Shown here: positions 1-8,772 of the stretch, in pieces
How positions within the stretch are numbered: the first letter of the stretch is position 1
How the letters are laid out: every line of letters begins with the position of its first letter
IMG/VR virus record: IMGVR_UViG_2548876958_000017
Length of the DNA stretch: 8,772 bases
Reading direction: 5' to 3' (one strand)
Source of the DNA: a virus
Lineage: Duplodnaviria; Heunggongvirae; Uroviricota; Caudoviricetes
Made by a program: the position numbers and the translations under genes
The notes under the pieces: model-generated
What the model saw: only the letters and a program-made list of their open reading frames with translations
Databases searched by the model: none
What the model was told of the DNA's origin: nothing

Positions 1-84
1 GCGCCACTGATCGCCCACTTCCTTCAGTTCATGGGCTGGTTTGTTCCGCAGTTCCACCAGCGCCTGGCAATATTTATTACTCAT
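1..84 (-). CDS. Partial CDS, N-terminal 28 codons only (continues past window start); product unknown, possibly a phage Dam-like DNA methyltransferase (speculative)
   Basis: Reverse-strand ATG at 84..82 overlaps the stop of the upstream gene (TAATG). Translation MSNKYCQALVELRNKPAHELKEVGDQWR stays open to position 1. The final DQWR could begin a D.W.TP motif, but the rest is outside the window. Confidence 0.4.
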   Translation of the reverse strand, partial: MSNKYCQALVELRNKPAHELKEVGDQWR

Positions 85-578
85 TAAGCCCCCACGTAAT
101 TCCCTGACAGATACCACTCTTCACCCGATGCAGCGCGCTTGCTGCTTTTCCGTAAGCACCGCTCACGACGCGCCAGAAAATTGTTTCGTTCTGGCTGGGA
201 GTGGCTTTCACGGAATGCCGCCATCCACACGGTTGCAGCACGACGGTATAAGCCCCTGGACTCCAGTTCTTCCGCCTGGCGGGTCAGGCACAAAATCACA
301 CGGGGATCGTTAGTGCCGACATAGAAATTGCGCACAGGTCTGGTTTCACGAACTGGTTGTGGTTCCGGTTCCTGCGCTCTCTCAGTCAGGCGCGGGAAAT
401 GTCTGCGTGTATCTCCTTCACAACGGTGAGCCACACGCCCACTCTGACGTAACTTGCTTGCTGACTGCAGAACGCGCTGCCGTGAGTAACCGGCAAAAGC
501 ATCCGCAATATCTCCGGAAGTACAGCCCGGATGGGCTTCAATGAATTTCTGAACGTCATTCAAAAGACTCATGCTCAC
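84..578 (-). CDS. Putative PerC/ANR-family-like transcriptional regulator with an N-terminal winged-helix-like domain (164 aa)
   Basis: ATG at 578..576 overlaps the stop of the O-like gene (ATGA coupling). The C-terminal segment LESRGLYRRAATVWMAAF...RRERCLRK resembles the PerC-family motif (GLWRRAA..W / RRN.C) as I recall it. The N-terminal ~60 aa look like a small DNA-binding fold. Family assignment is from memory only. Confidence 0.5.
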   Translation of the reverse strand: MSMSLLNDVQKFIEAHPGCTSGDIADAFAGYSRQRVLQSASKLRQSGRVAHRCEGDTRRHFPRLTERAQEPEPQPVRETRPVRNFYVGTNDPRVILCLTRQAEELESRGLYRRAATVWMAAFRESHSQPERNNFLARRERCLRKSSKRAASGEEWYLSGNYVGA

Positions 579-1516
579 CCCCTGAATCCTGCCGGGATCT
601 GGCTGTAGTCCACGTTGTCGTAACTGGCTTTGAAGTACGGGTCTTCGCGTTTTTCGGTGTACGTGCTGACGGACGGCGATAAGCGCAGGGAAAGCTCATC
701 CCATTTTTCCCGCAGCTTCGACGGGCTGAGCACGTTACGGCACCAGAACGGATCGCGACTGACGCGGCTGTACATCTCGCAGATTTGTTTATGAGTACGA
801 CCATCCTGCACACACATCAGGCGAATTTCGTTTGCCCAGGCTGTCCAGTTCGGTTCTTTGGGACGAACCACCTCGCCGTCACATTCGGCGGCCTGCTCGT
901 ACAGGGCGATGATTTTTTTCCAGAGCCACTGTGCGCAGGTCAAATCATCCTGCGTTCCCCACTGGCGCTTTTTAGGGCTGAATACAACCGCATCAGGATG
1001 GCGAGTTAAAAACTCCTGTTCAGCCGTCTGCGTGTCCGGTTGCGAAGCGTCCGGACGAGAAGTTTTTTTATCTGACGGATCATGTTTTGATTTTACTGAC
1101 GGATCCCCGCCAGATTCTGACGGGTGAAAACCCGCTTTTTTGCCAGATTTCGACGCATCAAATTTTGACGGGTCAGATTTTGATGCGTCAGATTTTGACG
1201 GGTCAGAATCTGACAGTTGAGAAAATGCCGCTGCCTGAAGCTTCGCAACGTTAAGCTGATAAACATTCGACGCATTGCGGTTACCCTGGCGACGCGCCTT
1301 ACGCGTTAACCAGCCTTCTGCTTCCAGCCGTGCGATAGCCGTTCTGACGGTACTCATTCCCGCGCCAATCTGGCGGGCAATGGTTTCAATTGATGGCCAG
1401 CACACACCTTCGTCATTACTGAAATCAGCTAGGCGGGCCATAATTGCCACGCTGGATAATTTCATGCCTGATGCAGCGCAACCATCCCATACATAGCCGG
1501 TTAATTTAGTGCTCAT
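575..1516 (-). CDS. Lambda O-like replication initiator (313 aa) containing the presumed origin iterons
   Basis: GAGG sits 6 nt upstream of ATG (1516..1514). The N-terminal segment is HTH-like (SVAIMARLADFSNDEGVCWPSIETIARQIGAGMSTVRTAIARLEAEGWL). The central low-complexity peptide DPSKSDASKSDPSKFDASKS is encoded by tandem ~15-bp repeats, as in lambda O where ori lies inside the gene. Confidence 0.8.
   Translation of the reverse strand: MSTKLTGYVWDGCAASGMKLSSVAIMARLADFSNDEGVCWPSIETIARQIGAGMSTVRTAIARLEAEGWLTRKARRQGNRNASNVYQLNVAKLQAAAFSQLSDSDPSKSDASKSDPSKFDASKSGKKAGFHPSESGGDPSVKSKHDPSDKKTSRPDASQPDTQTAEQEFLTRHPDAVVFSPKKRQWGTQDDLTCAQWLWKKIIALYEQAAECDGEVVRPKEPNWTAWANEIRLMCVQDGRTHKQICEMYSRVSRDPFWCRNVLSPSKLREKWDELSLRLSPSVSTYTEKREDPYFKASYDNVDYSQIPAGFRG
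1069..1219. repeat. Iteron array (about 7-8 copies, ~15-bp period, core CAGATTTTGACGGGT / TGACGG) inside the O-like gene; candidate replication origin
   Basis: Direct repeats read in sequence: tatctgacggatc, ttactgacggatc, cagattctgacgggt, cagatttcgacgcat, aaattttgacgggtc, agattttgatgcgtc, agattttgacgggtc, agaatctgacagttg. Confidence 0.75.
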
Positions 1517-1864: not shown

Positions 1865-2424
1865 GCGTTAGTTTCTCCACAGTCACGACACGCCACGGCG
1901 CCCGGAGCTGCACACTCGCGGGCGTCATTACTTTCTGAAATGCAAAAGATTTTGTAGACCAGTGCTGCATGCTCCTGCAGCTTCGAAATTGAGAGATACA
2001 GCTCGTCGTTAATTGCTGTCTTCTCATGCGGTTCCACCACACCGTCTTCGATTGCCGAACGAATCTGTCTGGAATAACTGCCAATCTGTTCAATGACTTC
2101 CAGCAGGCGCTGGTTAATATCGGCGTTGTCCACATCCTCGACGTCAGGAAGAGACACAAAGACGCCATTTGCAGACTGCGCCACAGCGTCAGCAATGAAG
2201 TGAGTGCCACCAGCACGTTGTAAAATCATTGCCCATCCCAGCGGGAAAATCTGATCGCCATCGGCACGAAGGCGGTTAAATAATGCGTTCTCTGTTACAT
2301 CCAGCCAGTCAGCTGCTTCAGCGTAACCACCCGGCAACTTTGCGATAGTTTTTCTGACAGCTTTCACGTACCACTCAGGCTGTTTTTCTACTTTCCAGTG
2401 ATGCTTACCCACGGTTAGCCTCAT
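1861..2424 (-). CDS. CII-like lysogeny-establishment regulator (187 aa), resembling the phage 186 CII / YdaT-type family
   Basis: It occupies the cII position directly downstream of cro. The segment [37 protein letters not shown] resembles the 186 CII region (...LRNKLNPEQPHQFTPPELWLL...DGFLAQ) from memory. The start is ambiguous: ATG at 2424 has no clear SD, while an in-frame GTG 12 nt downstream has AGG upstream. Confidence 0.55.
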
Positions 2425-2455
2425 CGTTCTGTGGTTAAAAATTGAAAGTGTTCTG

Positions 2456-2656
2456 CTAATCTTTCGGATAGATATCCGGTCTTAAGTCAGATTTCGTAAT
2501 TGCACCTGACGTGCATTGCTCAAGTTTTTTAGCCAGCACAAAACTGGCTTTTTTATAGCCATTGAAAACCAGCCGTAAGTAGCCAGGTGTTGAGCCAACT
2601 TTTCCGGCCAACTCGCCCTGCTGTTCTTTGGTTAAAGAGTCCCAATACGCTTTCAT
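2456..2656 (-). CDS. cro: Cro/YdaS-like HTH regulator (66 aa)
   Basis: It is divergent from the repressor gene. ATG at 2656 is preceded by GGAGG about 10 nt upstream on the minus strand. The sequence MKAYWDSLTKEQQGELAGKVGSTPGYLRLVFNGYKKASFVLAKKLEQCTSGAITKSDLRPDIY has a small HTH typical of YdaS/Cro-like proteins. The longer 167-aa ORF form would overlap the operators and the repressor gene. Confidence 0.8.
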   Translation of the reverse strand: MKAYWDSLTKEQQGELAGKVGSTPGYLRLVFNGYKKASFVLAKKLEQCTSGAITKSDLRPDIYPKD

Positions 2657-2746
2657 ACAATATGTACCTCCGGTGTACATATTACATGATTGAAATGAAC
2701 CTTCAAGATACTTGTACCTTAGCGGTACAAGGGTTTTAATTTCGTT
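2657..2746. promoter_or_regulatory. Divergent pR/pRM-type control region with two palindromic operators (OR)
   Basis: Operator 1 is ATGTACctccggtGTACAT at 2662..2680. Operator 2 is cTTGTACCttagcGGTACAAg at 2711..2731, with perfect 8-bp arms. Candidate pR on the minus strand is -35 TTGAAG (plus coords 2701..2706) and -10 TAATAT (2679..2684). There is no SD before the cI ATG, and TTTAAT at 2735..2740 is consistent with a leaderless pRM transcript. Confidence 0.65.
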
Positions 2747-3421
2747 ATGAAAACAATCCATGACATCCGGCGGTCTAACGCCAGAAAACTGAGAGATGGT
2801 GTTGGCGGGAATTCTTCCTTTGCCACTATGATTGATCGCGAGCCAACCCAGACCAGCAGGTTTATGGGAGATGGGGCTACTAAAAATATCGGTGACAGCA
2901 TGGCACGACACATCGAAAAATGTTTCGACCTGCCTGTCGGATGGCTCGATCAAGAACACCAGACAACGAACATCACAAAAAAACCTGATGTTTCAATCAC
3001 TAATAAACAAATCACATTAGTCCCTGTCATATCATGGGTACAGGCCGGAGCATGGAAAGAAGTTGGATATTCTGAGGTTGATTTGAGCACAGCAGAAACG
3101 TATCCCTGCCCTGTACCCTGTGGGGAAATGACTTATATCTTGCGGGTGATAGGTGATTCAATGATTGATGAGTACCGCCCGGGAGACATGATTTTTGTCG
3201 ATCCTGAAGTACCTGCCTGCCACGGTGACGACGTTATTGCATTGATGCACGATACAGGCGAAACCACCTTCAAAAGGTTGATAGAAGATGGGACACAGCG
3301 TTATCTTAAAGCGTTAAACCCAAACTGGCCTGAGCCTTACATTAAGATCAACGGTAATTGCTCTATAATTGGTACAGTGATTTTCTCCGGAAAACCAAGA
3401 AGATACAAAATCAAAGCCTAA
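2747..3421 (+). CDS. CI-type prophage repressor with a C-terminal S24 (LexA-like) autopeptidase domain (224 aa)
   Basis: The C-terminal domain closely parallels P22 C2 / lambda CI: ...ISWVQAGAWKE..., catalytic-Ser context VIGDSM, and Lys context TFKRL; compare P22 C2 ISWVSAGQW...QGDSM...TFKKL. The N-terminal ~90 aa are a distinct DNA-binding domain. It is divergent from cro across the operator region. Confidence 0.9.
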   Translation: MKTIHDIRRSNARKLRDGVGGNSSFATMIDREPTQTSRFMGDGATKNIGDSMARHIEKCFDLPVGWLDQEHQTTNITKKPDVSITNKQITLVPVISWVQAGAWKEVGYSEVDLSTAETYPCPVPCGEMTYILRVIGDSMIDEYRPGDMIFVDPEVPACHGDDVIALMHDTGETTFKRLIEDGTQRYLKALNPNWPEPYIKINGNCSIIGTVIFSGKPRRYKIKA

Positions 3422-3433
3422 TCAATGTTTATG

Positions 3434-3456
3434 AACCTGCTTCGGCAGGTTTTTTT
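3434..3456 (+). terminator. Rho-independent terminator after the repressor gene
   Basis: Perfect 7-bp stem AACCTGC / GCAGGTT with TTCG loop, followed by a T run (ttttttt), starting 13 nt after the cI stop. Confidence 0.8.
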
Positions 3457-3460
3457 ATAC

Positions 3461-3493
3461 TTGACAATGTACCTTTGAGATACATAATGTACC
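3461..3493 (+). promoter_or_regulatory. pL-type early-left promoter with OL operator
   Basis: -35 TTGACA (3461..3466), 16-nt spacer, -10 CATAAT (3483..3488). Operator-like palindrome ATGTACCTTTGAGATACAT (3467..3485) lies between -35 and -10, and a second ATGTACC half-site is at 3487..3493. Same half-site as in OR. Confidence 0.65.
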
Positions 3494-3592
3494 CAACCGA
3501 AACAACGAACAGGCAGGACGCCCACGAAGTAGCCGCCGGTGGCGTATGAATGACCGGATGATTCGTTAAATACTATGTGTAAGAGAGCGCAA

Positions 3593-3796
3593 ATGAACCG
3601 TTATTTCACATGCTCGTTTTGTGGCGCAAACGAGCTGCAGGCAAAAAAAATCATCGCCAAAGGCGGAAAAGATGAAATTGCTATCTGCTCTGAGTGCGTA
3701 GTCTTGTGTGTCGGGGCATTAATCAATATCAGCACAACTATTCAGTTCACACCAAATGAGAATGCGCCTTTAGATGCGAGGAAATCTGGAGGTTAA
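3593..3796 (+). CDS. Small free-standing ClpX-type C4 zinc-finger (ZBD-like) protein (67 aa)
   Basis: Start ATG at 3593 is preceded by GAGAG; the upstream ATG at 3575 has no SD. YFTCSFCGANELQAKKIIAKGGKDEIAICSECVVLCVGALI aligns with the E. coli ClpX N-terminal zinc-binding domain [37 protein letters not shown] (CSFCG ... IC.ECV.LC, four Cys). Confidence 0.7.
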   Translation: MNRYFTCSFCGANELQAKKIIAKGGKDEIAICSECVVLCVGALINISTTIQFTPNENAPLDARKSGG

Positions 3797-3885
3797 AGAA
3801 CAAAATGAAAGTCCAGATTTTAAACAATAACTGTGAAGTCGTTTGGGCGTAAAACATGACCGCGCGTAGACCAAGGGAGGAAAAA

Positions 3886-4062
3886 GTGGGAATAGTTAGA
3901 AATCAAGCAGATATATTGAAAATCAGCTCTGAATTGCTTGGAGTTTTGAAAAGTGAGCTCACCGCACATGGCATCGAGCCCACTGACGAAAATTTAAGTT
4001 GGGTTTTGTCGATTATTCAACAATCACTCAAGCCCAGCCTCAGCAAACTTTTTATCGAGTAG
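3886..4062 (+). CDS. Hypothetical small protein (58 aa from GTG; 68 aa if ATG 3856 is used)
   Basis: Strong SD AGGGAGG at 3874..3880, 5 nt before GTG 3886; the ATG at 3856 lacks an SD. The predicted protein is helical-looking with no recognisable motif. Its 3' end overlaps the convergent minus-strand ORF by 39 nt. Confidence 0.45.
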   Translation: MGIVRNQADILKISSELLGVLKSELTAHGIEPTDENLSWVLSIIQQSLKPSLSKLFIE

Positions 4063-4215
4063 TGCTTCGAACTTATCGTAAAGCTTGCTTATGTCGTCTA
4101 TCGGGTTTTCTGACGTACTGTAATTTTTATCTGATGTCATGGCAGCAGTCTGATATGCAGTGTGAGTCTTAACCGATAGTTGGAATAAATAAAGAATTTT
4201 TTCTTCTTTGGTCAT
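4024..4215 (-). CDS. Hypothetical small protein (63 aa), oriented against the pL operon
   Basis: ATG at 4215 with AAGGAAA about 7 nt upstream on the minus strand. A weak candidate promoter lies in 4216..4300 (minus-strand TTCACC-16-TATCTT). The predicted sequence MTKEEKILYLFQLSVKTHTAYQTAAMTSDKNYSTSENPIDDISKLYDKFEALLDKKFAEAGLE has no recognised family. Confidence 0.5.
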   Translation of the reverse strand: MTKEEKILYLFQLSVKTHTAYQTAAMTSDKNYSTSENPIDDISKLYDKFEALLDKKFAEAGLE

Positions 4216-4259
4216 AACTATTTCCTTCTTGGCTATATGAAAACACCAAGATACCACCG

Positions 4260-4729
4260 AGCCTGAAGTGGTGAAAAGACAGGCACATAACAGCTAAGTA
4301 TTTTCAACCAGAGAGAATCCTTAGCGTTGTGGTGAATGCGGCTCAGCGCACGCGGGTTAAGGTTGAGGCTGACAGTCGACCTTCTGTGGATACCCACCCG
4401 CCTGGTGTGCAACCTTCGCCAGGCACCGGGAGGCACCCGGCACCACAACTTTATGCTGTGTGTAGTCTTGGCGGTACCAGCTTGTACCCTTGCTTCCGGC
4501 TGGTACCGTCCTTTTTACAAAACAGAGAAGAGCATCACCGGACGACGGGCTCATAACCCAATCCATCCGGGCGGCTGCCACCGCAGGTGTTCTTCTCTGT
4601 TTTGTGGAGAAACTAACCGCCCCTACGGGGGCATTTATGGAAATGTAATTGACTCAATAATCGCCGGACGGTGAGGGCCTCCTTTTACCCGAATTCAGCG
4701 CGGTGCAGCGCATATACGTGGAGAACAAA
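4260..4729. other. GC-rich, ORF-poor, hairpin-dense non-coding island (candidate structured RNA or DNA site)
   Basis: Only overlapping ORFs rich in Arg/Gly/Pro and rare codons (AGG, CGG, GGG). 41 of 60 bases at 4381..4440 are G or C, against 22 of 60 at 4081..4140. Perfect 15-bp inverted repeat ACAAAACAGAGAAGA (4517..4531) / TCTTCTCTGTTTTGT (4591..4605); perfect 10-bp inverted repeat CGGTACCAGC (4472..4481) / GCTGGTACCG (4499..4508); further hairpins at 4400..4424, 4426..4440 and 4619..4632. Confidence 0.5.
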
Positions 4730-5266
4730 ATGTCATTTATTAAAACTTTTTCCGGGAAGCATTTTTATTATGACAGGATAAATAAAGACGACATCGTTAT
4801 TAACGATATCGCGGTTTCCCTTTCAAATATCTGTCGCTTTGCAGGACATCTTTCACACTTCTACAGTGTCGCCCAACATGCGGTGCTTTGCAGCCAGCTA
4901 GTGCCACAGGAATTTGCTTTTGAAGCTTTAATGCATGATGCAACAGAAGCATATTGCCAGGACATCCCCGCACCACTGAAACGACTTCTTCCTGACTATA
5001 AACGGATGGAAGAAAAAATAGACGCCGTAATCCGTGAGAAATACGGGTTACCTCCTGTTATGAGCACGCCAGTGAAATATGCCGATCTCATTATGCTGGC
5101 AACCGAACGCCGCGATCTCGGGCTTGATGATGGCTCTTTCTGGCCTGTACTGGAAGGTATCCCGGCAACAGAGATGTTCAAAGTGATTCCACAGGCACCG
5201 AGCCATGCCTACGGGATGTTTATGGAACGTTTTAACGAGTTATCGGAGTTACGCAAATGCGCATGA
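4730..5266 (+). CDS. HD-domain phosphohydrolase, YfbR/YfdR-like putative 5'-deoxynucleotidase (178 aa)
   Basis: SD GGAGA 5 nt before ATG 4730. HD-superfamily metal-ligand pattern: H in ...FAGHLSHFYSVAQHAVL..., HD in ...ALMHDATEAYCQDIP..., downstream D in ...YADLIML.... Size and motif order match the small prophage HD hydrolases such as CPS-53 YfdR as I recall them. Confidence 0.8.
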   Translation: MSFIKTFSGKHFYYDRINKDDIVINDIAVSLSNICRFAGHLSHFYSVAQHAVLCSQLVPQEFAFEALMHDATEAYCQDIPAPLKRLLPDYKRMEEKIDAVIREKYGLPPVMSTPVKYADLIMLATERRDLGLDDGSFWPVLEGIPATEMFKVIPQAPSHAYGMFMERFNELSELRKCA

Positions 5267-5619
5267 ATGTTTTCGAAATGGAAGGGTTTCTTCGTGGGAG
5301 ATGTGTACCGCGAGATCTGAAAGTGAATGAAACAGATGCTGAATACCTGGTGCGTAAATTCGATGCGCTTGAAGCTAAATGTGCAGCACAGGAAAACAAA
5401 GTAATACCAGTGTCAACTGAACTGCCACCAGCAAATGAAAGTGTTTTGTTATTCGATGCTAACGGAGAAGGCTGGCTAATTGGCTGGCGTTCTCTCTGGT
5501 ACACCTGGGGACAAAAAGAAACCGGAGAATGGCAGTGGACATTTCAGGTCGGGAGCCTTGAAAACGTCAATATCACTCACTGGGCAGTAATGCCAAAAGC
5601 ACCGGAGGCTGGAGCATAA
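5257..5619 (+). CDS. DUF551-family phage protein (120 aa)
   Basis: Start overlaps the HD gene stop (ATGCGCATGA; ATG 5257 or 5263). Trp-rich C-terminal domain ...GEGWLIGW...GEWQW...ITHWAVMPKAPE matches the DUF551 C-terminal signature (..THWMPLPEPP) from memory. Confidence 0.7.
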   Translation: MRMNVFEMEGFLRGRCVPRDLKVNETDAEYLVRKFDALEAKCAAQENKVIPVSTELPPANESVLLFDANGEGWLIGWRSLWYTWGQKETGEWQWTFQVGSLENVNITHWAVMPKAPEAGA

Positions 5620-5924
5620 TGACCACTTTTACCGACAAAGAACTGATTAAAGAAATTAAAGAGCGTATCAGCAGCCTTGACGTGCGAGACGATATTGAGC
5701 GCCGTGCTTATGAAATCGCACTCCTATCTCTGGAAGTAGAACCAGATGAACGCGAAGCTTATGAATTATTCATGGAAAAGCGTTTCGGTGACTTAGTAGA
5801 TCGTCGGAGAGCAAAAAACGGCGATAACGAATACATGGCATGGGATATGACTCTCGGTTGGATCGTCTGGCAGCAACGAGCAGGTATCCATTTTTCAACA
5901 ATGTCACAACAAGAGGTGAAATAA
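5619..5924 (+). CDS. Hypothetical phage protein (101 aa)
   Basis: ATG overlaps the previous stop (TAATG at 5617..5621) and its own stop overlaps the xis ATG (TAATG at 5922..5926). GGAG lies upstream. No family recognised. Confidence 0.6.
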   Translation: MTTFTDKELIKEIKERISSLDVRDDIERRAYEIALLSLEVEPDEREAYELFMEKRFGDLVDRRRAKNGDNEYMAWDMTLGWIVWQQRAGIHFSTMSQQEVK

Positions 5925-6274
5925 TGGAGCCATACAGCCTCACACTCGATGAGGCCTGTCATTTTCTCAAGATATCCAGACCGACTGCCATTAACTGGAT
6001 ACGCACAGGGCGTCTTCAGGCAACACGCAAAGATCCCACTAAGAATAAATCTCCTTACCTCACAACACGACAAGCCTGCATTGCGGCTCTTCAGTCTCCG
6101 CTGCATACTGTCCAGGTGAGCGCGGGTGATGGCATAACAGAGGAAAGAAAATGTCACTCTTCCGCAGAGGTGAAATATGGTACGCCAGTTTCACATTGCC
6201 GAACGGTAAAAGATTTAAACAGTCTCTTGGAACAAAGGACAAAAGGCAGGCGACAGAACTCCATGACAAGCTAA
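5924..6274 (+). CDS. xis: Excisionase (Xis), P22-type, 116 aa; its 3' end overlaps int by 124 nt
   Basis: ATG 5924 is translationally coupled to the upstream gene, with GAGGTGA as SD. The N-terminal sequence [30 protein letters not shown] is a classic excisionase/AlpA-type HTH. It sits immediately upstream of int. The 116-aa length matches my recollection of P22 Xis. Confidence 0.75.
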
Positions 6275-7314
6275 AGGCTGAAGCATGGCGGGTCAGCAAA
6301 CTTGGTGAAATACCTGATATAACGTTCGAGGAAGCGTGTGTCAGGTGGCTTGAAGAGAAAGCACATAAAAAATCACTGGACGATGACAAAAGCCGGATCG
6401 GATTCTGGCTTCAACATTTCGCAGGAATGCAACTAAGAGACATTACTGAATCAAAAATTTATTCAGCAATGCAGAAAATGACGAACCGGCGTCATGAGGA
6501 AAACTGGAAACTCAGGGCAGAAGCATGCAGAAAAAAAGGGAAACCTGTTCCAGAATACACGCCAAAACCAGCGTCCGTTGCAACGAAGGCTACGCATCTT
6601 TCATTTATAAAGGCCCTACTAAGAGCCGCAGAGCGTGAATGGAAAATGCTGGATAAGGCACCAATTATTAAAGTGCCTCAACCAAAGAATAAACGGATCC
6701 GCTGGCTGGAGCCCCATGAAGCACAAAGGCTGATTGATGAATGTCCGGAGCCATTAAAGTCTGTTGTTGAATTTGCACTGGCAACAGGCTTAAGACGCTC
6801 GAACATCATCAACCTTGAATGGCAACAAATAGATATGCAGCGCCGGGTGGCATGGATAAACCCGGAAGAGAGTAAATCAAACCGCGCAATTGGCGTTGCG
6901 CTGAATGATACTGCATGTCGCGTATTGAAAAAACAAATCGGGAATCATCACCGTTGGGTATTTGTGTACAAGGAAAGCTGTACCAAACCAGACGGAACGA
7001 AAGCGCCAACAGTCAGGAAGATGCGGTATGACGCAAACACAGCCTGGAAAGCGGCGCTGAGACGGGCTGGTATTGATGATTTCAGATTTCACGACTTGAG
7101 ACACACCTGGGCAAGTTGGCTGGTTCAAGCCGGAGTCCCGTTGTCAGTGTTACAGGAAATGGGAGGCTGGGAGTCTATCGAAATGGTTCGTCGATATGCT
7201 CACCTTGCACCTAATCACCTTACCGAACACGCACGGCAAATAGACTCGATCCTGAACCCATCGGTCCCAAATTTGTCCCAGTCAAAAAATAAGGAAGATA
7301 CTAATGATGTGTAA
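6151..7314 (+). CDS. int: Tyrosine site-specific integrase, P22-like (387 aa)
   Basis: SD GAGGAAAG before ATG 6151. The N-terminus [46 protein letters not shown] is nearly identical to P22 Int as I recall it. C-terminal catalytic region has R...HDLRHT...RY ([39 protein letters not shown]). It ends 15 bp from the tRNA 3' end. Confidence 0.95.
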
Positions 7315-7328
7315 CTTATTGATTTAAA

Positions 7329-7404
7329 TGGTGCCGATAATAGGAGTCGAACCTACGACCTTCGCATTACGAATGCGCTGCTCTACCAACTGAGCTATAT
7401 CGGC
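7329..7404 (-). tRNA. thrW: tRNA-Thr (anticodon CGU), with encoded CCA
   Basis: The reverse complement reads GCCGATATAGCTCAGTTGGTAGAGCAGCGCATTCGTAATGCGAAGGTCGTAGGTTCGACTCCTATTATCGGCACCA. It has canonical D-loop (AGCTCAGTTGGTAGAGC), anticodon loop (CATTCGTAATG) and T-loop (GGTTCGACTCC), and a 7-bp acceptor stem (GCCGATA / TATCGGC). Confidence 0.97.
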
Positions 7405-7457
7405 CCTGAAAGGACATGTTCACGAACGTGAATCACGGTGGACAAGGTTAAAACTAA

Positions 7458-7512
7458 CCGGGCGATGCGTCAATGGCCTTGTGAATCAAATGGCTACTTT
7501 TGCATCACCCGG
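7458..7512 (-). terminator. Terminator-like long hairpin just downstream of proA
   Basis: 11-bp inverted repeat with one mismatch (plus strand CCGGGCGATGC 7458..7468 / GCATCACCCGG 7502..7512) begins 7 nt after the proA stop. On the minus strand it is followed by a U-rich tract (UUAGUUUUAA). The 33-nt loop is atypical for a simple intrinsic terminator. Confidence 0.35.
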
Positions 7513-7518
7513 TTTTAT

Positions 7519-8772
7519 TTACGCACGAATGGTGTAATCACCAATGCCGATCCACTTGTAAGTGGTCAGTGCTTCCAGCCCCATTGGGCCACGCGCGTGG
7601 AGTTTTTGTGTGCTTACCGCCACTTCCGCACCCAGACCAAACTGGCCGCCGTCGGTAAAACGCGTAGAGGCGTTAACGTAAACAGCGGACGAATCCACTT
7701 CGTTAACAAAACGCTGGGCGTTGCGCATATCGCGGGTCAGGATCGCATCGGAGTGTTGTGTGCCGTGTTCACGAATATGGGCGATGGCATCGTCAAGATC
7801 GCTGACGATTTTGACGTTCAAATCTAATGACAGAAACTCATCGTCATACTCTTCGGCTTTAACAGCAACCACCTTCGCAGGGCCTGCCTGCAACTGCGCC
7901 AGTGCAGCTGCATCTGCGTGTAATGTCACGCCGCTTTCCGCCATTTGTTTGCTTAATGCGGGCAGGAAGCTATCGGCGATGTTTTTATTCACCAGCAACG
8001 TTTCAACCGTATTACATGTGCTCGGACGCTGAGTTTTCGCGTTGACGATCACTTTTAATGCTTCAGCGATCTCTACACTTTCATCAACGTAAATATGGCA
8101 TACGCCTATACCACCTGTGATCACCGGGATTGTCGACTGTTCACGGCACAGTTTATGCAAACCAGCGCCACCACGCGGGATCAGCATGTCGATGTATTTA
8201 TCCATACGCAGCATTTCACTGACCAGCGCACGGTCAGGATTATCAATCGCCTGCACGGCACCCGCCGGTAAGCCGCAGGATTTCAGGGCGTCCTGAATCA
8301 CCGCCACCGTTGCAGCGTTAGTGCGACACGTTTCTTTGCCACCGCGCAGGATCACCGCATTACCGGTTTTCAGGCACAGCGAAGCGACATCAACCGTCAC
8401 GTTCGGGCGCGCTTCATAAATCACGCCAATAACCCCCAGCGGTACGCGACGACGCTCAAGACGCAGGCCGCTGTCCAGTACGCTGCCATCGATTACCTGC
8501 CCCACCGGATCGGCGAGGTTACACACCTGGCGCACATCATCGGCAATGCCTTTCAGCCGTGCGGGCGTCAGTGCCAGACGGTCAAGCATCGCTTCGCCAA
8601 GGCCATTGGCACGCGCGTCAGCAACATCCTGGGCGTTAGCGTTGAGGATGATTTCGCTTTGTGCTTCCAGTTCATCGGCGATTTTTTCCAGCACGCGATT
8701 TTTTTCGCGGCTGGAGAGTTGCGCTAATTTATACGAGGCTTGCTTCGCGGCAATGCCCATTTGTTCCAGCAT
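7519..8772 (-). CDS. proA: Gamma-glutamyl phosphate reductase (glutamate-5-semialdehyde dehydrogenase), 417 aa
   Basis: Full-length ORF whose translation ([30 protein letters not shown] ... [15 protein letters not shown]) I recognise as Escherichia coli ProA. The start codon is the last three bases of the window, so upstream context is absent. Confidence 0.95.

Follow-up and report, generated by a model that had tools for sequence, protein, structure and literature searches.

The closest described relatives of the genes analysed here are yfdQ, yfdR, yfdS and yfdT of the cryptic prophage CPS-53/KplE1. In 2016, Noguchi and Katayama obtained yfdQRST as genes that in multicopy suppress the over-initiating hda-185 mutant, and the minimal suppressing set consisted of yfdQ and yfdR plus either yfdS or yfdT (PMC4776307). 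Frameshift mutants indicated that the proteins, and not the DNA, were responsible, oriC replication in vitro was inhibited by extracts over-supplied with the four Yfd proteins, and K-12 YfdR was found to bind domain I of DnaA at Phe46, a site that DiaA and DnaB also use (PMC4776307). Here, we analysed a stretch of 8,772 nucleotides (nt) from a Caudoviricetes record of IMG/VR (IMGVR_UViG_2548876958_000017; the whole stretch is called the window hereafter), in which a cassette of three genes at positions 4730-5924 stands directly before an excisionase gene, xis. We found that this cassette is almost certainly the yfdR-yfdS-yfdT set already described in E. coli and Shigella prophages of the SfII/SfV/KplE1 type. 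On balance, we favour the view that it is the yfdRST module of an SfII/SfV-type lambdoid prophage and acts on host initiation during induction.

The model in which YfdR competes for DnaA has been repeated in later papers, including a 2025 eLife paper. In the original study, YfdR alone was insufficient in vivo (PMC4776307). DiaA, SirA of B. subtilis and the lambda P protein, like YfdR, bind the initiator and interfere with its partners (PMC4776307), but they are unrelated to YfdR in sequence and fold, and lambda P binds domain III of DnaA.

Gene calls in the window were taken from a program-made list of open reading frames (ORFs) and from direct reading of the raw sequence. At the DNA level, the cassette is 99.2% identical to genes 34-32 of SfII and 97.6% identical to orf30-28 of SfV and to SfIV; SfV ORFs had already been described as encoding YfdQRST homologues (PMC4776307). 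By blastn, positions 4619-5980 of the window align with positions 6920-8281 of a CPS-53-type locus (L002 in our set) at 95.3% identity, and the two copies have 173 of 178 residues in common in YfdR, 114 of 120 in YfdS and 97 of 101 in YfdT. Most nucleotide differences between these copies are synonymous (15 of 20 in yfdR, 11 of 17 in yfdS and 10 of 14 in yfdT, the other 5, 6 and 4 changing the protein), which points to purifying selection. The yfd junction sequences of the CPS-53-type copy are identical to those of the window or differ by one base. When positions 4700-5930 were searched by megablast against 5426 complete E. coli genomes, a match was found in 3261 of them (about 60%), with at least 80% of the query covered in 1892. 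The matches carry, in order, the RefSeq names "yfdR: 5'-deoxynucleotidase", "YfdS family phage-associated protein" or "phage protein", and "yfdT: protein YfdT", followed by a helix-turn-helix protein. The initial annotation of this DNA, made from its letters alone, had presented the cassette as uncharacterised. This was mistaken, as yfdR-yfdS-yfdT were studied experimentally in 2016 and YfdR binds DnaA.

The three genes are shared with several prophages whose surroundings differ. SfII (SfII_34-33-32) has the same xis-int pair as the window, the same STnc100-like element upstream (see below) and neither yfdP nor yfdQ. SfV (orf30-29-28) and SfIV also have the same xis-int downstream, but SfV keeps orf32 (yfdP) and orf31 (yfdQ). 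In SfII, SfV and SfIV, the immunity region and the genes just past the promoter candidate differ from those of the window, as expected for mosaic phages. The gene order in the CPS-53/KplE1 locus L002 is yfdG ... yfdP-yfdQ-yfdR-yfdS-yfdT-torI-dsdC. It has the same three genes as the window, in the same order and with the same overlap junctions, but yfdP and yfdQ are present and the cassette is followed by a remnant of xis and then torI, beside dsdC, where the window has an intact P22-type xis and int at a tRNA-Thr gene.

Comparison with L002 indicated that yfdP and yfdQ are absent from the window, as they are from SfII, and that the homology begins 17 nt past the yfdQ stop codon. Among 80 close loci, this short form lacking yfdP-yfdQ was seen in 19, and about 50 have yfdP-yfdQ between the STnc100-like element and yfdR. 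In SfV, in cdtI and in the CPS-53-type locus, yfdP/yfdQ sit between the STnc100-like element and the yfdR leader (window 4619 versus L002 6920, and L004 3628-4920). At the other side of the cassette, the homology with the CPS-53-type locus runs 56 nt beyond yfdT into a remnant of a P22-type xis in which the ATG has become ATA (L002 8226-8286 versus window 5924-5980). We conclude from this remnant that CPS-53 descends from a phage with the yfdT-xis junction of the window. Another excisionase gene, torI, lies 131 nt downstream in that locus. The relationship to CPS-53 reaches beyond the cassette, since two replication-side genes of the window, 84-578 (PerC-like yfdN) and 575-1516 (helix-turn-helix/O-like yfdO), match the CPS-53-type locus at 98% identity (window 1-1283).

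Judging from its intact catalytic motif, YfdR is probably an active metal-dependent phosphohydrolase of the HD-domain type. We collected YfdR homologues from IMG/VR and GTDB representative genomes, which gave 158 loci at 35-99% identity and 98 distinct proteins (99 with the window's own) from Proteobacteria, Actinomycetota, Firmicutes, Planctomycetota and other phyla. Conservation of the HD residues among homologues had been set beforehand as a check able to overturn the assignment of YfdR as an HD hydrolase. Each of the residues H50, H69, D70, E73, D78 and D119 is retained by 98-99 of the 99 distinct homologues, and all are invariant in an alignment of 23 sequences (A4). Such near-universal conservation argues that the active site is under strong selection and that catalysis matters, and a model of pure competition for DnaA leaves it unexplained. 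The HD-hydrolase assignment made by the initial annotation is supported, as is that of the second gene product to DUF551, and both have weak Pfam scores: 24.7 bits for YfdR against the YfbR-like family (PF12917; cut-off 25.9) and 22.0 bits for YfdS against DUF551 (PF04448; cut-off 22.0; E 3e-4, residues 50-117). YfdR also scored 20 bits against the NCBIfam YfbR equivalog NF003009, whose cut-off is 122. We rejected YfdR as a YfbR equivalog, as its scores lie below both curated cut-offs.

By single sequence, the nearest solved structure to YfdR is that of Atu1052 from Agrobacterium (2GZ4, E 6e-13), which was deposited as a hypothetical protein. A profile built from 23 homologues aligned with 2GZ4 over the full length, including the C-terminal helices (3e-30), and then with Lin2634 (3MZO), YfbR (PDB 2PAQ, 5e-5) and OxsA. 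Unlike YfdR, Atu1052 is chromosomal and has no known link to DnaA or phages. YfbR is, like YfdR, a small single-domain HD phosphohydrolase whose H...HD...E...D core aligns, but the alignment is confined to this core and was obtained by profile, not by single sequence. In the DnaA study, which cites Zimmerman et al. 2008 on this point, YfdR is described as homologous to YfbR in structure and as having far lower affinities for nucleotides (PMC4776307).

Alignments of their relatives indicate that YfdS and YfdT are two-module accessory proteins from a shuffled pool of Ead/Ea22/DUF551 parts. The C-terminal DUF551-type domain of YfdS (about residues 47-120) is fused to several N-termini, including Ead/Ea22 (PF13935; alignment A3), and close YfdS relatives of 192 amino acids (aa) carry a precomputed PF04448 match. 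In YfdT, for which no Pfam or NCBIfam family was found, the conserved core reads DERAAYELFMEKRFG..VDRRRAKNGD.EYMAWDM.LGWI.W..RA; no fewer than six unrelated N-terminal leaders are found attached to it at the pivot IALASLE.EP (alignment A2), and this core sometimes bears a C-terminal DUF551. The pivot corresponds to YfdT residues 33-42 (window 5715-5744) and was seen in relatives P0001-P0120; in phages SKA5 and cdtI, the YfdT leader joins other C-terminal domains there. This motif could serve as a functional linker or mark a joint made by recombination. Between YfdT and the proteins at the third position in SKA5 and cdtI, the shared residues are limited to the first 42 and the final four (QEVK), and the QEVK codons overlap the Shine-Dalgarno sequence of the next gene. 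The same kind of mosaicism has been described for the exo-xis region of lambda and Stx phages and for Ea22 (PMC10834534).

With a threshold of E up to 10, neither YfdS nor YfdT nor the 206- and 269-aa proteins found at the third position matched the Pfam Ead_Ea22 model (PF13935), to which lambda Ea22 scored 100.9 bits. YfdT as a short Ea22 was rejected, given 24% identity to lambda Ea22 and no match to Pfam Ead_Ea22. Against PDB sequences, YfdS and YfdT had nothing below E 0.5. AlphaFold2 models were too poor for a fold search: that of YfdT, from 22 sequences, has five helices with a mean pLDDT of 61 and a pTM of 0.38, and that of YfdS, from 20 sequences, has an N-terminal helix and four strands with a pLDDT of 53 and a pTM of 0.30. 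In a search of 5.8 billion proteins, relatives of YfdS and YfdT were essentially limited to E. coli, Shigella and close relatives.

The yfdR-yfdS-yfdT trio is not a fixed unit. For synteny we compared 84 close loci, defined by a YfdR at least 94% identical, and almost all of them keep the 10-nt overlap junction at the end of yfdR. YfdS, YfdT and a P22-type xis follow it in about 17 of the 84, as in the window. YfdS is followed by proteins of 67 aa and 79/82 aa in about another 17, and by a 206-aa DUF551 protein in about 12, the latter with a 64-aa gene coming next at the position of the cdtI excisionase gp34. In the remaining close loci, the protein at the second position has 292, 203, 192 or 116 aa, and all of these except the 292-aa protein share their first 42-68 residues or so with YfdS. 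Distant YfdR homologues (at most 63% identity) have no YfdS/YfdT neighbour, with one partial exception.

Direct reading of the raw sequence confirmed that the three ORFs are chained by stop/start overlaps, as had been claimed, and that the cassette lies directly upstream of xis. First, yfdR and yfdS overlap by 10 nt (ATGCGCATGA at 5257-5266), the yfdS ATG being at 5257 and the yfdR stop codon TGA at 5264-5266; a second in-frame yfdS ATG at 5263 would make an ATGA overlap with yfdR. Second, yfdS and yfdT overlap by 1 nt in TAATG at 5617-5621, and so do yfdT and xis in TAATG at 5922-5926. Third, each start is preceded by a Shine-Dalgarno-like run of its own, located within the 3' end of the preceding gene (Table 1), so that each gene could equally well initiate on its own. 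A succession of three overlaps is ordinary compact packing for this phage type. The GenBank annotation of SfII shows overlaps at 27 of the 47 same-strand junctions, of 1-10 nt in 18 cases, with three or more in succession at several places. ORF chains downstream of close yfdR homologues overlap at 255 of 298 junctions, as counted by an algorithm that favours overlaps. Genes of the rightward operon of the window also overlap (575-578 and 1506-1516). The overlaps may permit translational re-initiation, but they do not set a fixed stoichiometry.

As for the expression of the cassette, its position relative to the immunity region makes it likely part of a repressor-controlled early-left accessory operon. 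Past the repressor gene cI (2747-3421, Peptidase_S24) come a terminator hairpin (3433-3452) and then a strong sigma-70-like sequence, the candidate early-left promoter (Table 1). The spacer of this promoter holds a 17-bp operator-like palindrome, TGTACC-N5-GGTACA (3468-3484), of which two further copies (2663-2679 and 2713-2729) lie between cro and cI. The promoter candidate and the palindromes are probably the pL/oL and oR of this immunity type.

Before yfdR, the G+C content rises to 57-58%, against about 42% in the flanks. A homologue of the small RNA (sRNA) STnc100 is found there, with a terminator-like hairpin and U-run at 4465-4519, and the fold of 4258-4730 has a minimum free energy of -193 kcal/mol, with z = -6.0 on the + strand. 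STnc100 has been related to the PasD prophage sRNAs in a 2026 preprint. In about 75 of 80 close loci, the yfd(PQ)R module is preceded by this element, which forms its conserved upstream boundary. An ORF at 4336-4674 (112 aa; SfII_35, a frameshifted pseudogene in RefSeq) was considered as a gene and judged more likely to be non-coding, given the full-length STnc100 match and a far better fold than shuffled sequences give. A consensus scan gave no promoter between 4519 and 4730, and no N-like antiterminator was found among the proteins of the window by Pfam, NCBIfam and PHROG searches. From its place between the pL candidate and yfdR-xis-int, the STnc100-like element may gate read-through.

In the sequence of events that we propose, yfdRST, which share their strand with cI, xis and int, would close a leftward early operon as its last three accessory genes, at the position of the exo-xis genes of lambda. 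Upon prophage induction, loss of the repressor would open the operator-bearing promoter, and transcription passing the STnc100-like terminator would lead to production of YfdR, YfdS, YfdT, Xis and Int. YfdR, to which we transfer DnaA domain I binding, and the lowering of oriC initiation by an excess of YfdR and its helpers, from the about 97%-identical K-12 protein, would then, with its helpers, damp host initiation or free DnaB during excision and replication. YfdS and YfdT could be interchangeable helpers. That inhibition directed at DnaA is the physiological role of the cassette is a tentative proposal, to which we give somewhat less than even weight, and several points speak against it. 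The yfdQ gene, required for the multicopy phenotype, is absent here and in SfII. Deletion of yfdQRST caused no initiation or hydroxyurea phenotype, and the authors themselves allow that the over-expression effect is possibly an artefact (PMC4776307). Catalytic conservation, which extends to distant bacteria without YfdS/YfdT neighbours, suggests that enzyme activity, and not DnaA binding, is what is selected. Finally, the terminator-like hairpin and U-run stand between the promoter candidate and yfdR, and the consensus scan gave no promoter after them.

The main alternative is that YfdR is mainly a 5'-deoxynucleotidase or nucleotide phosphohydrolase that remodels pools of deoxynucleoside mono- or triphosphates (dNMP/dNTP) or of signalling nucleotides, its binding to DnaA being incidental. 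This is compatible with an action on host initiation, and we hold it to be rather unlikely. The conservation of the HD residues even in distant homologues, the RefSeq and PHROGs labels (5'-deoxynucleotidase or dNMP phosphatase) and the profile alignment of the HD core with YfbR and OxsA argue for it, but the low nucleotide affinities cited above (PMC4776307), the scores below the YfbR-like and equivalog cut-offs and the fact that Atu1052, the closest solved relative, has no known substrate argue the other way. In another reading, YfdR would be more than a passive competitor for DnaA: its HD site, whose residues are conserved to the degree seen in true enzymes, would work on the initiator complex. 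It could hydrolyse a nucleotide that DnaA-oriC binds or requires, or be directed to oriC by DnaA and deplete nucleotides locally, with interchangeable YfdS/YfdT-type modules as adaptors. We consider this a long shot; if true, the cassette would be a phage enzymatic switch that stops host initiation in step with excision. A different role, which we find improbable, is the tuning of induction and of the choice between lysis and lysogeny, of the exo-xis type reported for Ea22, in which YfdS and YfdT would modulate induction, for instance under oxidative stress. The lambda/Stx exo-xis region (ea22, ea8.5, orf60a, orf61, orf63) resembles the cassette in its early-left place before xis, in its small mosaic proteins and in its exchange of DUF551 and Ead/Ea22 modules; lambda has no YfdR homologue there. 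More specifically, the cassette lies between the immunity region and xis as lambda ea22 and ea8.5 do, the DUF551-type domain of YfdS occurs fused to Ead/Ea22 N-termini and YfdT-like cores occur fused to DUF551, and the second and third positions in SKA5 are annotated "EaE" and "Ea22" in GenBank. The Ea22 paper ties DUF551 and YfdS to an oxidative-stress phenotype (PMC10834534), and an H2O2 sensitivity of the yfdS deletion is cited in PMC4776307. However, YfdS and YfdT lack an Ead_Ea22 match, and the Ea22 data come from different proteins.

Defence and counter-defence genes are frequent among the accessory genes with which prophage early operons end, and HD domains occur in several defence systems. 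A role of the cassette in anti-phage defence, superinfection exclusion or counter-defence, the first of which had been raised in the initial annotation, is nevertheless very unlikely: in a PADLOC search at E up to 0.01, no family matched the three proteins or their three small neighbours, and the published phenotypes concern replication initiation. Least credible of all is that translational coupling fixes the stoichiometry of the three products with Xis and Int, in a complex acting in excision. The overlaps do run unbroken from yfdR to xis, and the junctions are near-identical in the CPS-53-type copy, but such overlaps are the norm in SfII, every gene has its own Shine-Dalgarno run, and the P22-type order YfdS-YfdT-xis occurs in only about 17 of the 84 close loci, the same yfdR junction leading elsewhere to unrelated genes. 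The stoichiometric co-expression with Xis and Int that had been read from the overlaps is likewise unsupported: the 124-nt overlap of xis with int is in another frame, and in the CPS-53-type locus the cassette stands far from its integrase and beside an xis that is degraded. Neither can it be inferred from a common transcript, because a terminator-like structure intervenes and neither an N-like antiterminator nor an internal promoter was found. The pull-down among the products that had been suggested as a check has in effect been done with the K-12 proteins, and neither YfdQ nor YfdS nor YfdT bound YfdR or DnaA with high affinity (PMC4776307).

The coordinates of the features are collected in Table 1. 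With int followed by tRNA-Thr and then proA, the window is the right-hand end of a prophage that has inserted at the tRNA-Thr gene beside proA. The order int, tRNA-Thr, proA, proB matches that of strain ECCHD184. For yfdR, GTG 4703 was rejected as the start in favour of ATG 4730, which has a GGAG 7 nt upstream and is the choice of RefSeq and GenBank. The xis product also matches the TIGR01764 excisionase domain, below the cut-off. The int gene starts 124 nt inside xis and ends 15 nt from the tRNA-Thr gene.

Table 1. Features of the window around the yfdRST cassette and the prophage end
Feature	Position	Strand	Description	Matches and remarks
Candidate early-left promoter	3461..3488	+	TTGACA-16-CATAAT	11/12 consensus matches (consensus scan)
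STnc100/PasD-type sRNA homologue	4296..4519	+	Full model 1-206, including terminal hairpin and U-run	Rfam RF02076, 43.4 bits (gathering score 47), E 2e-8
Long near-perfect hairpin, ~25 bp	4515..4608	+	Between sRNA terminator and yfdR leader	94% conserved in Stx2, cdtI and mEp460 phages
yfdR leader	4619..4729	+	111 nt; present in nearly all close loci	CPS-53-type homology starts here, just past the yfdQ end of that locus
yfdR	4730..5266	+	178 aa; predicted HD-domain phosphohydrolase, orthologue of DnaA-binding YfdR of CPS-53/KplE1	RefSeq "yfdR: 5'-deoxynucleotidase"; phrog_318, E 5e-109
Shine-Dalgarno-like run of yfdS	5245-5248		GGAG	
yfdS	5257..5619	+	120 aa; variable N-terminal helix ~1-46, conserved DUF551-type C-terminal domain ~47-120	phrog_583, E 1e-81
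Shine-Dalgarno-like runs of yfdT	5604-5608; 5611-5614		GGAGG; GGAG	
yfdT	5619..5924	+	101 aa; variable N-terminal leader 1-30, pivot IALxSLEVEP, conserved core ~43-88	phrog_660, E 7e-31; RefSeq "protein YfdT"
Shine-Dalgarno-like run of xis	5913-5918		GAGGTG	
xis	5924..6274	+	116 aa; P22/SfII-type excisionase	Pfam HTH_17, 1.6e-8; phrog_2907 excisionase, 1e-50; annotated xis in SfII and SfV
int	6151..7314	+	387-aa tyrosine integrase	Pfam Phage_integrase, 3e-48; annotated int in SfII and SfV
tRNA-Thr (CGT)	7329..7404	-	Prophage/chromosome junction	ARAGORN; Rfam tRNA, 71.8 bits
proA	7519..8772	-	Beyond tRNA-Thr	

The genes from 3575 to int are on the + strand, apart from a convergent ORF on the - strand (4024-4257). 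This ORF (63/77 aa, phrog_2605) faces another at 3856-4062 (+, 68 aa, phrog_15476), and their 3' ends overlap by 39 nt in the presumed early-left transcript. The first ORF after the pL candidate (3575-3796, +), at the position of lambda N, encodes 73 aa comprising little beyond a ClpX C4 zinc finger (Pfam zf-C4_ClpX, 7e-10; phrog_5259). As a free copy of the domain by which ClpX binds substrates and adaptors, its product might interfere with the recognition of phage or host proteins by ClpXP. Compared with ECCHD184, the window differs at 3873-4250 and in the immunity region (2417-3500), which marks mosaic boundaries.

What we report is thus in essence an annotation, in which a prophage cassette that is very common in E. 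coli and Shigella has been matched to named genes on which there is one dedicated functional study. Because xis and int are intact, yfdQ is missing and an inducible relative exists, the SfII-type arrangement would be a better test system than the cryptic CPS-53 for effects on host replication during induction.

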